A DNA stretch of 64,000 bases from Escherichia coli (lineage in GTDB: Bacteria > Pseudomonadota > Gammaproteobacteria > Enterobacterales > Enterobacteriaceae): assembly GCF_003334405.1 (NCBI RefSeq), contig NZ_QOWM01000008.1; one strand, given 5' to 3'. This document shows positions 18,579-33,200 of this stretch, piece by piece. Positions within the stretch are counted from its first letter, which is position 1. Every line of letters begins with the position of its first letter. Both the position numbers and the translations under genes were made by a program. The notes beneath the pieces were generated by a model, which ran no database searches, was not told the origin of the DNA, and worked only from the letters and a program-made list of their open reading frames with translations.

Positions 18579-19528
<950 letters not shown>

Positions 19529-19554
<26 letters not shown>

Positions 19555-20317
19555 GATGCCAGCGCAGCAAGTTTGCCATCGCAAAGAGATATTTTTCGCT
19601 GGCTTCGTCGGAGGAGATGGGCGGAAACTCTGCGGTGATGCAATGCAAGTTCAGATCTGCACACCAACTGCCGAAAGAGCCAGGCGTTTCATAACCGACG
19701 CTGGTTACCAGAGGCAATTCAAACGCCTGAGCCAGCCATTCGCCTAATTCGCTGTGTCTGGGATCTTCAATACAGGCCAGTGGATCGTGGAATGAGACCA
19801 CCCAGGCAGGTTGAATGCGGTGTATAAGCTGGCACAGCGCCTGGGTTTCAGGTTCGGAGCCAGGTTTGTCACCTGTCAGTAATACGACATCGCGTTCTTC
19901 AGCGGCGCTGTTCCAGCGATAAACGGTTTCACCTTCCTTCCAGTTCGCCGCCGGAAAGTTTCTGTTTAAATCCACACCATTAGCATTGGCCCGTAACCCC
20001 AACTGGCAGCCGTCAGGATTCACACACAGCACCACATGATGACGGCGCAAAGAAGGTGTCAACGTCCGCAGAGCACAGGAGAGCGTGACGACCGAAGAGT
20101 TTTCATCACCGTGAGTGCCAGCCAGAATCAAACCACTTTCGCGGCTGGCTGCAGGGGCAGGAAACCAGATTAACGGCGCGCCCAATAATGAACGTCCGTA
20201 ATGTTCTGTTCCGGGCGGAAATGCGCCGCGTTCGGCGCGTGGGCGGGTTACGGTCATGATCGTCTCTGGTTCAGGAAGTATTACAGGCAGTGTTGTGCAA
20301 ATTTTGCGGATTATCAA
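19529..20317 (-). CDS. mpaA: Murein tripeptide amidase (zinc carboxypeptidase family)
   Basis: 262-aa ORF; true start may be an internal Met; 3' end overlaps the convergent ycjG. Confidence 0.8.
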
Positions 20318-20338
20318 ATCCTTTTCTTCAACGCTATG

Positions 20339-20521
20339 TCATCGATCTTGTATCACTTTTTTGCCGGAAGTTGTTTGCATTTTATTAGTTGGATAGGGTT
20401 TGTGGATTTTTGCTGGCTGACGGGCAAATAAAGTTTGTTTAATGGTTTGCTTATCTGCCAGTTGATTAATCACATGGCGGGCTATCTGACCGCCAGCACC
20501 AAGAATCAGTACATTTTTCAT
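20339..20521 (-). pseudogene. ymjC: Truncated NAD(P)-binding Rossmann fragment (ymjC-like remnant)
   Basis: 60-aa ORF starting MKNVLILGAGGQIARHV with nothing after the dinucleotide-binding fold. Confidence 0.35.
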
Positions 20522-20591
20522 GAAAATTATCCCAGATTATTGGCAGCAATATGCCAGTCCATATCACTATTGCGGATTTGAATATGTTTCA

Positions 20592-21524
20592 TTACAGAGT
20601 TTCCTCAAAGAACGGAGCTAATACTGAAATTGCTTCAGCCACATAGGCTTTGCCGTCATAAAGATCCATATGGTTTGCGCCTTCAACAATGTGATAGCGT
20701 TTATCCTGGCTTGATGCTCGATCGTACAGGTCGTCACTCATCCATTTGCTCCCTGCCTGGCTGCCCGCCACAATCTGCGTCGGCTGAGTCAGGTACACTT
20801 CCGCCATATGGTAAGCATCATAGGTAATAATCTGGTTAAGGCTGCGCAAAGTAGCGTAACCCGGTGCTGTTGGATACTGCGCGCGAGGGGTGTGGTAATA
20901 CTCCCAGGCCTGACGCAGTTCTTCGTTCGGCGCATCGGACTCCTTCATTGGTGCCAGTGGCATAATGGCGTATTCTCCGCTGCTAATATCGCTGGTTCTG
21001 GCGTTTGAACCCGCTTCAACGTATGGCAGGGCATCAATAGATTTCACATTGTTTTCCCAACCATTACGGAATATCGAACCAATATTGACCGCACTAACGG
21101 TACCGATGGCCTTGATGCGGCGATCCTGAATTGCAGCATTGGCTGTATATCCTGCACCGGCACAAATTCCCATCGCACCAATTCGGGTATTGTCGACATA
21201 AGAAAGCGTTGTCAGGTAATCAATCACGGCACTGATGTCTTCAGTACGAATGTATGGGTTTTCTAACTGACGCGGCTCGCCGCCACTTTCACCTTGATAA
21301 GATGCGTCATAAGCAATAGTGACAAATCCCTTTTCCGCCAGTTTTTTGGCATAGGTTCCGGCCGTTTGTTCTTTAACGCCCCCACCTGGGTGAGATAACA
21401 CAATTGCCTGATACTGACGGGTTTCATCAAATTTTGGAGGGAAATAGATCACTGCAGACAAAGAGATGGTTGGATTATTGCTGTTAGTGAAGCTGACTTT
21501 ATTATTCATCATTCCGTTCCTCAT
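20592..21524 (-). CDS. ycjY: Alpha/beta-hydrolase (dienelactone hydrolase / S9 peptidase-like)
   Basis: 310-aa ORF with nucleophile-elbow-like GICAGAG. Confidence 0.8.
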   Translation of the reverse strand: MRNGMMNNKVSFTNSNNPTISLSAVIYFPPKFDETRQYQAIVLSHPGGGVKEQTAGTYAKKLAEKGFVTIAYDASYQGESGGEPRQLENPYIRTEDISAVIDYLTTLSYVDNTRIGAMGICAGAGYTANAAIQDRRIKAIGTVSAVNIGSIFRNGWENNVKSIDALPYVEAGSNARTSDISSGEYAIMPLAPMKESDAPNEELRQAWEYYHTPRAQYPTAPGYATLRSLNQIITYDAYHMAEVYLTQPTQIVAGSQAGSKWMSDDLYDRASSQDKRYHIVEGANHMDLYDGKAYVAEAISVLAPFFEETL

Positions 21525-21649
21525 GGAGTTGTCGGTTCGTTTTAACGGTTGGTGATATCACTATAGATATTGATCATTAAGTTGATTAGACCCAAAATCA
21601 TGATTAGACCTATCATTTAAATGATTAATAGATTGCATGGAGATACTGA

Positions 21650-22549
21650 ATGAAGCGTGAAGAAATCGCTGATCTGATGGCGTTTGTCGTCGTTGCAGAG
21701 GAGCGTAGCTTCACTCGTGCAGCAGCCCGCCTGAGCATGGCGCAGTCAGCTTTAAGCCAGATAGTGCGTCGTATAGAAGAACGATTGGGATTGCGGCTTC
21801 TGACGCGAACCACGCGCAGCGTTGTTCCAACTGAAGCGGGCGAGCATCTTTTGTCTGTTCTTGGCCCTATGTTGCATGACATAGATTCAGCCATGGCATC
21901 CCTGAGCGATCTGCAGAACCGCCCATCCGGGACAATACGTATTACTACTGTAGAACATGCAGCAAAAACGATATTGTTACCAGCAATGCGCACATTCCTG
22001 AAATCGCATCCTGAAATTGATATTCAGCTCACCATTGATTATGGTTTGACCGATGTCGTTTCTGAACGTTTTGATGCAGGCGTCCGTCTGGGTGGGGAGA
22101 TGGATAAAGATATGATCGCCATTCGAATCGGGCCAGATATACCAATGGCTATTGTTGGCTCACCGGATTATTTTTCTCGCCGAAGTGTTCCAACGTCAGT
22201 GTCACAATTAATAGATCATCAGGCAATTAATTTGTATCTTCCCACATCGGGTACAGCAAATCGCTGGAGATTAATACGCGGTGGACGTGAAGTTCGTGTT
22301 CGCATGGAAGGTCAGCTTTTACTGAATACGATAGACCTGATCATTGATGCTGCAATTGATGGGCATGGATTGGCGTATCTACCTTATGATCAGGTTGAGC
22401 GGGCTATTAAAGAAAAAAAACTGATACGTGTTTTGGATAAATTCACACCAGATTTACCCGGTTATCACCTGTACTATCCACACCGTCGACATGCTGGCTC
22501 GGCATTCTCATTATTTATAGATAGGCTGAAGTATAAAGGTGCTGTTTAG
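21650..22549 (+). CDS. pgrR: LysR-family transcriptional regulator
   Basis: 299-aa ORF with N-terminal LysR HTH; divergent from ycjY. Confidence 0.8.
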   Translation: MKREEIADLMAFVVVAEERSFTRAAARLSMAQSALSQIVRRIEERLGLRLLTRTTRSVVPTEAGEHLLSVLGPMLHDIDSAMASLSDLQNRPSGTIRITTVEHAAKTILLPAMRTFLKSHPEIDIQLTIDYGLTDVVSERFDAGVRLGGEMDKDMIAIRIGPDIPMAIVGSPDYFSRRSVPTSVSQLIDHQAINLYLPTSGTANRWRLIRGGREVRVRMEGQLLLNTIDLIIDAAIDGHGLAYLPYDQVERAIKEKKLIRVLDKFTPDLPGYHLYYPHRRHAGSAFSLFIDRLKYKGAV

Positions 22550-22885
22550 CACTACTTGCTGATACATTAATTTAATTCTTCTCTTAACGTATTCTCAGTT
22601 CCTTTCAACGTTTTGGTCATTTTTTATTCTTCGTACAATGGCGACAGATGCTGATTATGATACCGAAAACGGGTTTGAACGTGCGAAGCCCGAACGTAGT
22701 GTTCGGAGTTCTATGTGCTTTACCGCATTTTGGAGACTATTATTTACACTAAATCTGATTTGATATATTGATACTTAAAACATTTGATGCTTCCTTTGTC
22801 ACTTTTTTGATGGAAGTTGTTTGCATTTCTTTAAGGCGAAACAAATAATTACGCATCAATTTTAATGTCGGTTAGAGGGAAACTT

Positions 22886-24499
22886 ATGAAGCACTCTGTT
22901 TCAGTCACGTGTTGTGCGCTGTTGGTCAGCAGCATTTCTCTTTCGTATGCTGCAGAAGTTCCGAGCGGCACAGTACTGGCAGAGAAGCAGGAGCTGGTGC
23001 GCCACATTAAAGATGAGCCTGCGTCGCTGGATCCCGCTAAAGCCGTGGGCCTGCCAGAGATTCAGGTCATTCGCGATCTGTTTGAAGGTCTGGTGAATCA
23101 GAACGAAAAAGGGGAGATTGTCCCCGGCGTTGCGACTCAGTGGAAAAGTAATGACAACCGTATCTGGACTTTTACCCTGCGCGATAACGCAAAATGGGCG
23201 GATGGCACACCGGTAACGGCGCAAGATTTTGTCTACAGCTGGCAACGTCTGGTGGACCCAAAAACATTGTCGCCATTTGCATGGTTTGCCGCGCTGGCGG
23301 GAATCAACAACGCACAGGCGATTATTGATGGTAAAGCTACGCCTGACCAGCTTGGCGTCACCGCAGTTGATGCCCATACTTTGAAAATTCAGCTTGATAA
23401 ACCGTTGCCGTGGTTTGTGAATTTAACCGCTAACTTTGCCTTCTTCCCGGTGCAAAAAGCCAACGTAGAAAGCGGTAAAGAGTGGACGAAACCCGGAAAT
23501 CTGATCGGCAATGGCGCTTATGTTCTTAAAGAGCGCGTAGTCAATGAAAAACTGGTCGTGGTACCGAATACCCATTATTGGGATAACGCCAAAACGGTAC
23601 TGCAAAAAGTGACCTTCCTGCCAATTAATCAGGAATCCGCAGCCACTAAGCGTTACCTCGCGGGGGATATTGATATCACCGAATCCTTCCCGAAAAATAT
23701 GTATCAGAAGCTGTTGAAGGATATTCCGGGGCAGGTTTATACGCCGCCGCAGCTCGGGACCTATTATTATGCGTTTAACACGCAAAAAGGGCCGACGGCA
23801 GATCAGCGCGTTCGTCTGGCATTAAGTATGACGATAGATCGCCGCCTGATGACCGAAAAAGTATTAGGGACGGGCGAAAAGCCAGCGTGGCATTTTACAC
23901 CAGATGTTACCGCGGGATTTACGCCGGAACCTTCGCCGTTTGAACAAATGAGTCAGGAAGAACTGAATGCGCAGGCAAAAACTTTGTTGAGCGCAGCTGG
24001 TTATGGTCCGCAAAAACCGCTGAAGCTGACGCTTTTGTATAACACTTCAGAAAACCATCAAAAAATTGCGATTGCTGTAGCATCGATGTGGAAAAAGAAC
24101 CTTGGCGTAGATGTTAAATTGCAAAATCAGGAATGGAAAACCTATATCGATAGCCGTAACACCGGCAATTTTGATGTTATCCGCGCCTCGTGGGTGGGGG
24201 ATTATAATGAACCCTCCACTTTCCTGACATTATTAACGTCAACGCATTCAGGAAATATTTCACGCTTTAACAATCCGGCATATGACAAAGTTCTGGCCCA
24301 GGCATCGACGGAAAATACCGTTAAAGCGCGTAATGCCGATTACAACGCGGCAGAAAAAATCCTCATGGAGCAAGCACCGATTGCACCAATTTATCAATAT
24401 ACCAATGGACGATTAATCAAGCCGTGGCTGAAAGGTTATCCCATTAATAATCCTGAAGATGTGGCGTACAGTCGGACTATGTATATTGTGAAGCATTGA
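22886..24499 (+). CDS. mppA: Periplasmic murein tripeptide-binding protein (OppA paralogue)
   Basis: ORF 22865-24499; start placed at MKHSVSVT; signal peptide present. Confidence 0.85.
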   Translation: MKHSVSVTCCALLVSSISLSYAAEVPSGTVLAEKQELVRHIKDEPASLDPAKAVGLPEIQVIRDLFEGLVNQNEKGEIVPGVATQWKSNDNRIWTFTLRDNAKWADGTPVTAQDFVYSWQRLVDPKTLSPFAWFAALAGINNAQAIIDGKATPDQLGVTAVDAHTLKIQLDKPLPWFVNLTANFAFFPVQKANVESGKEWTKPGNLIGNGAYVLKERVVNEKLVVVPNTHYWDNAKTVLQKVTFLPINQESAATKRYLAGDIDITESFPKNMYQKLLKDIPGQVYTPPQLGTYYYAFNTQKGPTADQRVRLALSMTIDRRLMTEKVLGTGEKPAWHFTPDVTAGFTPEPSPFEQMSQEELNAQAKTLLSAAGYGPQKPLKLTLLYNTSENHQKIAIAVASMWKKNLGVDVKLQNQEWKTYIDSRNTGNFDVIRASWVGDYNEPSTFLTLLTSTHSGNISRFNNPAYDKVLAQASTENTVKARNADYNAAEKILMEQAPIAPIYQYTNGRLIKPWLKGYPINNPEDVAYSRTMYIVKH

Positions 24500-33025: not shown

Positions 33026-33200
33026 AACCTTTCCCGTCATCAGTAAAAAGTGTGACCCGGTTCACGTAGCGATAGTTTTTACTTATCACTAACTGATTTT
33101 TCACAGTTTTAACCGTTCATAAATTACCCTGACACAATCATCTGCATTAAAGTAGATGCCAGTTTCTTTGGTCTGATAAATAACGGTTATCGGTGGCGTC

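Follow-up and report, generated by a model that had tools for sequence, protein, structure and literature searches.

Genomic islets that have entered a chromosome are recognised by their target-site duplications, typically of 2-14 bp when made by a transposase, with a single target copy where the site is empty and a direct copy on either side of the foreign DNA where it is filled; such sites are polymorphic within a species, and the insert can be lost precisely. Integrase islands and cis-mobilizable elements are bordered by direct repeats of tens of bp at a tRNA or gene end, and their excision restores the target. Two kinds of regulatory region are also of relevance here, the operators of LysR-type regulators, which are T-N11-A dyads in the divergent spacer beside the regulator gene, and back-to-back divergent sigma-70 promoters. 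In this study, a pair of near-identical 30-bp repeats was investigated in a stretch of 64,000 nucleotides from Escherichia coli (contig NZ_QOWM01000008.1 of assembly GCF_003334405.1; the whole of this stretch is referred to as the window). One copy lies upstream of mpaA and the other upstream of mppA, with the LysR-type regulator gene pgrR between them. It is very probable that these repeats are an insertion scar, in which 30 bp of a promoter core shared by mpaA and mppA became a target duplication around a cassette that carries pgrR. The allele in the window is of the E. coli K-12 type, with 100 % identity to W3110 over the 4 kb compared, and gene annotation was taken from the RefSeq record of the identical W3110 sequence.

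The two copies of the repeat, referred to here as the motif, are as follows.

20353..20382, plus strand: repeat copy 1, TCACTTTTTTGCCGGAAGTTGTTTGCATTT, the left direct repeat, which adjoins mpaA.
22799..22828, plus strand: repeat copy 2, TCACTTTTTTGATGGAAGTTGTTTGCATTT, the right direct repeat, which adjoins mppA.

The copies are on the same strand, are identical at 28 of 30 positions and have a start-to-start distance of 2446 bp. The near-identical pair with two differing positions, as described in the original prediction, is therefore real. That prediction placed copy 1 correctly and copy 2 one base too far to the right, at 22800 rather than 22799. It also gave copy 2 as 35-60 nt from the mppA start, where the measured distance is 58-87 nt upstream of the mppA ATG (22886). 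Copy 1 is upstream of mpaA as had been stated, 96-125 nt from the ATG (20257). The overlap of copy 1 with the ymjC remnant does not hold, as only the out-of-frame tail of the program-made ymjC open reading frame is touched and the RefSeq ymjC pseudogene runs from 20384. Being direct repeats beside divergent genes, the copies are indeed in opposite orientation relative to mpaA and mppA, as would be expected of a piece duplicated out of a divergent intergenic region.

Elsewhere in the 64-kb window, no further match to the motif with three or fewer mismatches is present, nor did a match arise in any of 100 shuffles of the window that preserved dinucleotides. A genome-wide scan, which had been proposed as a check, was run on 5419 E. 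coli genomes and found the motif at this locus only, with a median of two places per genome and one place per genome in strains with an empty site. A repeat search of the window stretches the pair to 42 nt at 83 % identity. The longer and more ancient duplication that this would represent was rejected as chance, the flank alignments being at or below the level of shuffled sequence. The duplication is sharply bounded at 30 bp, with the similarity stopping at its edges.

The comparison that carries the interpretation is with genomes in which the two genes are not separated. Neighbouring genes were located for 80 MpaA-encoding loci, one genome per species, and in 75 of the 80, across at least 15 genera, mppA is directly upstream of mpaA, in divergent orientation and 138-316 bp away. 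These 75 loci are from five Escherichia species, including E. albertii and E. whittamii, and from at least 12 other genera, such as Citrobacter, Enterobacter, Lelliottia, Leclercia, Kluyvera, and Kosakonia. The gap between mpaA and mppA in Escherichia with the empty site is 182 bp, or 188 bp when counted from the mpaA CAT to the mppA ATG (five empty sites; loci L003, L004, L006, L007, and L011), and this 188-bp sequence has, base for base, the layout of the K-12 left flank, one motif, and the K-12 right flank. For the conservation analysis, 69 single-copy mpaA-mppA spacers from the Enterobacteriaceae were aligned, and there is a single copy of the motif in each of them. Since the empty site holds one motif together with both K-12 flanks, the K-12 repeat is read as a 30-bp target duplication around the insert. 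The flanks of the insert were also tested; the repeats are direct, they abut the inserted DNA, and there is no likeness beyond their edges. Of the options raised in the original prediction, that of a duplicated fragment is thus borne out, the single-copy empty sites indicating that the motif was duplicated when a cassette of an SDR gene, ycjY, and pgrR was inserted.

Filled and empty alleles are both found within E. coli. Of the complete E. coli genomes in which the locus is present (5419), 166-173 have a contiguous empty site (approximately 3 %), ST648 being one example. Among 166 empty sites, 143 have 99 % identity or more to the GCCGG-type query, and the remaining 23 include GATGG-type single copies. 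The GCCGG-type empty sites, which occur in phylogroup F among others, may be ancestral or may be secondary losses. In strain CP131_Sichuan, 1383 of 1383 bases match K-12 minus the cassette and one repeat, with the copy-2 variant retained; the cassette has been deleted here precisely and recently, by a crossover within the first 11 bp of the repeats, and the repeats therefore serve as substrates for precise loss of the cassette. All nine filled E. coli loci examined have the dinucleotide difference CC to AT in copy 2. Copy 1 varies among strains, reading GCATTT or GTATTT, and one strain has an insertion of 1 nt. Variation is likewise present in the 5′ part of copy 2, and copy 2 has a 1-nt deletion in O157:H7; the 3′ 19 nt of copy 2, in which the predicted mppA −35 is located, are identical in all filled E. 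coli-labelled loci examined and have one differing position in Escherichia sp. E1V33 (L005).

The original prediction had also raised the option of a promoter element and suggested a comparison with mapped transcription start sites. The start of mpaA has been mapped at NC_000913.2 position 1388705 on the minus strand, with 20 reads (Kim et al., 2012; PMC3415461, supplementary file 2). The published string from −50 to +1 holds the reverse complement of copy 1, which corresponds to −13 to −42, and the mapped start is thus at the right distance from this copy. The promoter features and the conserved blocks of the 69 spacers are listed below.

20340, minus strand: mpaA transcription start site, from an exact match of the published −50..+1 string to the window.
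20347..20355, minus strand: mpaA extended −10, TGaTACAAG, by position relative to the mapped start at 20340.
22821..22826, plus strand: predicted mppA −35, TTGCAT, inside copy 2 with an upstream T-tract, from the promoter scan.
22844..22849, plus strand: predicted mppA −10, AATAAT, in the unique right flank, from the promoter scan and conservation.
5′ edge of the motif (20353-20355): TCA block, invariant in 69 of 69.
Within the motif: T-tract, 83-99 % conserved.
Within the motif (22814-22816 in copy 2): AAG block, 88-99 % conserved.
3′ edge of the motif: TTGC, within TTTGCATTT, invariant.
Right of the motif, at a fixed distance: ACAAATAAT, invariant.

The extended −10 of mpaA straddles the edge of the repeat, with the hexamer (20347-20352) in the unique left flank and the TG (20354-20355) inside copy 1; its consensus in other genera is TGATATAAG. 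At mppA, the promoter scan gave TTTGCA-18-AATAAT, which is equivalent to TTGCAT-17-AATAAT, with a predicted start near 22856. In this second form, 10 of the 12 hexamer positions are invariant in the 69 genomes, the last two positions of the −35 are at 94 % and 81 %, and the spacing is constant throughout. From these sequence data, a sigma-70-type promoter for mppA is predicted, composed of the −35 in copy 2 and the −10 in the flank. The alignment of the spacers has a variable middle between invariant blocks. In the filled locus, orphan halves are left without a matching partner element: copy 2 has TGA+CAAAGG, and in copy 1 the TTGCAT runs into cassette DNA. The option of a promoter element is therefore also upheld, the motif being the shared core of the ancestral divergent mpaA and mppA promoters. 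Like other back-to-back divergent sigma-70 promoters, the ancestral pair would have shared an upstream region, its starts being approximately 70 bp apart and the motif lying between the mpaA −10 and the mppA −35. The E. coli locus differs in that this core is duplicated and the promoters are 2.4-4 kb apart, a distance by which any coupling between them would have been broken.

Two additional blocks, GCAGTGTTGTGCAAA (20287-20301) and ATCAAAT (20313-20321), are almost invariant across the 69 Enterobacteriaceae. They are downstream of the mapped mpaA start, in the 83-nt leader, and might serve as an additional promoter, as an operator, or as an RNA element.

The gene order in K-12 is ycjG (+), mpaA (−), the ymjC remnant (−), ycjY (−), pgrR (+), and mppA (+). 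The annotated genes and the inserted DNA have the following positions.

19529..20257, minus strand: mpaA, murein tripeptide amidase (RefSeq annotation).
20383..22798, no strand: inserted DNA surviving in K-12, 2416 bp, with the ymjC remnant of the SDR gene, ycjY, pgrR, and the queH fragment.
20592..21512, minus strand: ycjY, alpha/beta hydrolase, cassette gene (annotation).
21650..22549, plus strand: pgrR, LysR-type regulator, cassette gene (annotation).
22649..22723, plus strand: queH (epoxyqueuosine reductase) fragment, degraded, between pgrR and copy 2 (annotated as a partial QueH pseudogene in O157:H7 and E47).
22886..24499, plus strand: mppA, murein tripeptide binding protein (annotation).

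The fullest allele of the cassette is that of O157:H7, which is 3961 bp and contains the SDR gene, a frameshifted second alpha/beta hydrolase, ycjY, pgrR, and the short queH fragment. The cassette is absent from the empty sites of the five Escherichia species, of approximately 65 other Enterobacteriaceae, and of the 166-173 E. coli genomes. A four-gene module with 79 % DNA identity is present on conjugative plasmids of Klebsiella aerogenes, Klebsiella variicola, and Klebsiella pneumoniae, with more distant versions on plasmids of Rhizobium and Agrobacterium, and the YcjY protein has 80-84 % identity to hydrolases of Rhizobium, Agrobacterium, Sphingobium, and Burkholderia. The GC content is 44.9 % in the cassette, against 54.9 % in mpaA. 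Taken together, the plasmid module, the likeness of YcjY, the low GC content, and the stray queH sequence indicate that the cassette is of foreign origin. The identity of YcjY is far above that expected from vertical descent, and the module of LysR and hydrolase genes appears to spread widely on plasmids across phyla-level groups. The queH fragment has a weak Pfam match (PF02677, i-Evalue 0.0046, for the O157 version) and no match in NCBIfam, and its frame in K-12 is disrupted by stops. Its presence suggests that the insert was captured as a piece of some donor replicon whose LysR gene was followed by queH. When the donor was sought, the contexts of the closest non-Escherichia YcjY homologues were found to differ from one another, and none has queH beside the LysR gene.

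The cassette is decaying in E. coli, with repeat-to-repeat spacings of 3991, 3589, 3111, 2446 (the K-12 type), 1327, and 0 bp among the alleles. A 665-bp deletion, shared by K-12, many other strains, and Escherichia sp. E1V33 (L005), begins one base after copy 1 (junction 20383-20384). The sequence that it removed is intact in the uropathogenic E. coli clone D i14 (L002 2384-3048), whose mpaA contains an internal stop and carries a pseudogene annotation (L002 1530-2258). The deletion took away two-thirds of the SDR gene, at its 3′ end, together with a perfect hairpin of 12 bp that precedes UUUAUU and comes shortly after the SDR stop codon (folding z = −4.1). Removal of this hairpin probably explains the K-12 read-through as a ycjY-ymjDC-mpaA operon. 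The junction also creates a promoter-like sequence, TCCACA-16-TAAAAT, on the minus strand at 20379-20406 and aimed at mpaA; this was rejected as the source of the mapped mpaA start, since 20340 is too far downstream.

On this evidence, a course of events can be proposed. In the ancestor, mpaA and mppA would have been back to back, as they still are in almost all Enterobacteriaceae, approximately 182 bp apart, with one motif between their promoters. A horizontally acquired cassette of approximately 4 kb (the SDR gene, the second hydrolase, ycjY, pgrR, and the queH fragment) would then have entered the E. coli lineage, with the 30 bp ending on both sides of it. The duplicated piece would begin immediately before the mpaA −10 hexamer, on its upstream side, and end shortly beyond the mppA −35, and as this span covers both promoter edges, each gene would have kept a complete promoter after the insertion. 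Copy 1 supplies −13 to −42 of the mpaA promoter, including the TG of its extended −10, and copy 2 would supply the −35 of mppA with its upstream T-tract. The direct repeats also permit precise loss of the cassette by recombination or slippage. Candidate routes for the duplication itself are fill-in repair of a 30-nt staggered break, template switching during replication, and the integration of a circle bearing the 30 bp through a single crossover within this sequence. The last of these is mildly favoured by the CC to AT difference, which copy 2 has in every filled E. coli locus examined; it gains no support from the viral contigs or the plasmid homologues of the cassette, neither of which contain the motif.

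Several observations weigh against an insertion scar of this kind. To our knowledge, bacterial transposases give target duplications of 2-14 bp, and 30 bp is much longer. There is no transposase or integrase annotated in any cassette allele examined, nor are there terminal inverted repeats at the cassette ends, so that, together with the 30-bp duplication, the locus does not have the characteristics of a transposon or insertion sequence. Given the CC to AT difference, copy 2 could derive partly from the incoming DNA rather than from simple fill-in. With regard to the promoters, the data of Kim et al. (2012) contain no transcription start site at the predicted mppA promoter, which is also not listed by the published RpoD-holoenzyme systematic evolution of ligands by exponential enrichment (SELEX), and the promoter hexamers leave the conserved AAG (22814-22816) and T-tract unexplained.

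The main alternative for the origin of the repeats is that the copies are attL and attR of a site-specific integrative element now devoid of its integrase, with the 30 bp as the recombination core common to element and chromosome. Sharp-edged direct repeats around foreign DNA fit this, as does the fixed difference in copy 2, which would be a hybrid of incoming and resident cores, and the natural precise excision in CP131_Sichuan restores a single site. Such excision is equally expected from homologous recombination or slippage, however; with 30 bp of identity, loss can proceed by RecA-dependent recombination or by slippage, and no integrase is needed. Neither a recombinase gene nor a fragment of one is present in any cassette allele, and the only integrase encountered across the loci examined belongs to an unrelated prophage in mppA in one strain. 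The cassette ends carry a terminator-like hairpin and the queH remnant, which are not element ends, and the plasmid homologues of the cassette have neither the end segments nor the motif. An exact-pattern scan of 2.9 million viral contigs (IMG/VR; viral contigs only) gave no match to the motif, and a phage attachment site was rejected. The att reading is considered unlikely. Compared with integrase islands, the locus has no recombinase in or beside the islet, no element was found that carries the core, and the target is an intergenic promoter region and not a tRNA or gene end. It is closer to the target-site duplications of genomic islets, having one copy in the empty site, two direct copies abutting foreign DNA, polymorphism within the species, and precise loss; it differs in the length of the duplication, in the lack of a transposase, terminal inverted repeats, and an integrase, and in an insert with the look of a fragment captured from a donor replicon, stray queH sequence included. 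Some slight weight can be given to less conventional explanations, either an enterobacterial integration route not previously described, such as 30-nt staggered nicks at open divergent promoters or an integrase acting in trans, or an operator for a regulator of murein-peptide recycling on both copies. Membership of the motif in a family of dispersed repeats (REP/BIME, ERIC, or MITE), or a chance resemblance between the copies, has next to no probability, the existence of two copies being all that speaks for it. The motif is confined to this locus, as described above, no Rfam family reached threshold when 19400-23400 was scanned with a permissive E-value, and the shuffles refute chance.

Regulator binding has also to be considered, since the original prediction proposed a shared operator for PgrR, with both copies bound and mpaA and mppA co-regulated. 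In its favour are the position of pgrR between the copies and the K-12 literature, which puts mpaA in the PgrR regulon via the ycjY-ymjDC-mpaA transcript. The motif is present in single copy, however, in approximately 70 species without pgrR at the locus, and its conservation where pgrR is absent means that it predates the arrival of pgrR. Furthermore, the genomic SELEX targets of PgrR include only the ycjY/ycjZ spacer at this locus and not the regions upstream of mppA or mpaA (PMC5934670). The motif has no dyad symmetry or inverted repeat, and the longest k-mer that it has in common with the PgrR-bound spacer is 7 nt, equalled or bettered in 412 of 1000 shuffles. The likeness to LysR-type operators is thus limited to a nearby LysR gene, the documented PgrR site being in the ycjY/pgrR spacer, and a PgrR operator in the motif is highly improbable. 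It is unlikely, although rather less so, that the motif binds some other regulator beyond its promoter elements, such as IHF, which would have co-regulated mpaA and mppA in the ancestor and would now have sites in both copies. The AAG block and T-tract are conserved outside the −10 and −35 hexamers, and nearly all E. coli retain both copies. The sequence TATCAC-TTTT-TTG is one mismatch from the IHF core consensus, WATCAR-N4-TTR. Against this, no binding data for any factor here were found in the literature, and the drift of copy 1 in some lineages and the 1-nt deletion of copy 2 in O157:H7 weigh against strong constraint on the whole 30 bp in both copies. A CRP site, CGTGAACCGGGTCACA, apparently tabled for ycjZ/mppA (PMC4287617), was rejected, as it maps to 33051-33066 in the abgA/abgR spacer, the extracted row having been shifted. 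An insertion scar in a shared promoter core remains the favoured interpretation of the repeats.

Other insertions were observed in and near this spacer. In two subspecies of Salmonella enterica, arizonae and diarizonae, the space between mpaA and mppA holds a cdtABC-like islet (3.1-3.4 kb; L022 3848-7000 and L025 3562-7000) that codes for a DNase I-like CdtB and for two lipoproteins resembling lectins. On its left side the islet breaks the spacer within the motif, and it replaces approximately 50-60 bp, including the conserved mppA promoter, with no duplication. The mechanism of the E. coli cassette was therefore rejected for this islet, as spacer DNA has been replaced without duplication. A 12-nt match, CTTTTTTGATGG, near the mppA-side end of the islet is probably due to chance. 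S. enterica subsp. enterica (L101) has an empty spacer of 189 bp. From the E. coli cassette and the Salmonella islet, it follows that the mpaA-mppA spacer has been hit independently in two genera. In the empty-site E. coli strain MFDS1019527 (L100 4941-6386), the prophage mentioned above, with its tyrosine integrase, is located approximately 22 codons into mppA and leaves a short 5′ fragment of the gene.

A repeat in the best-studied bacterial genome can thus be explained as an ordinary insertion scar, with no new kind of biology. The cassette interrupts a promoter region that elsewhere in the Enterobacteriaceae is conserved, and testable core promoters for mpaA and mppA are the result, along with a natural example of the precise loss of an islet through 30-bp repeats. 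The named regulator of peptidoglycan recycling, pgrR, sits in an accessory, plasmid-like, and decaying cassette, in which it and ycjY are horizontally acquired passengers between two conserved murein-peptide genes. As approximately 3 % of E. coli are without this cassette, a core role for PgrR in the regulation of mpaA or mppA is excluded.

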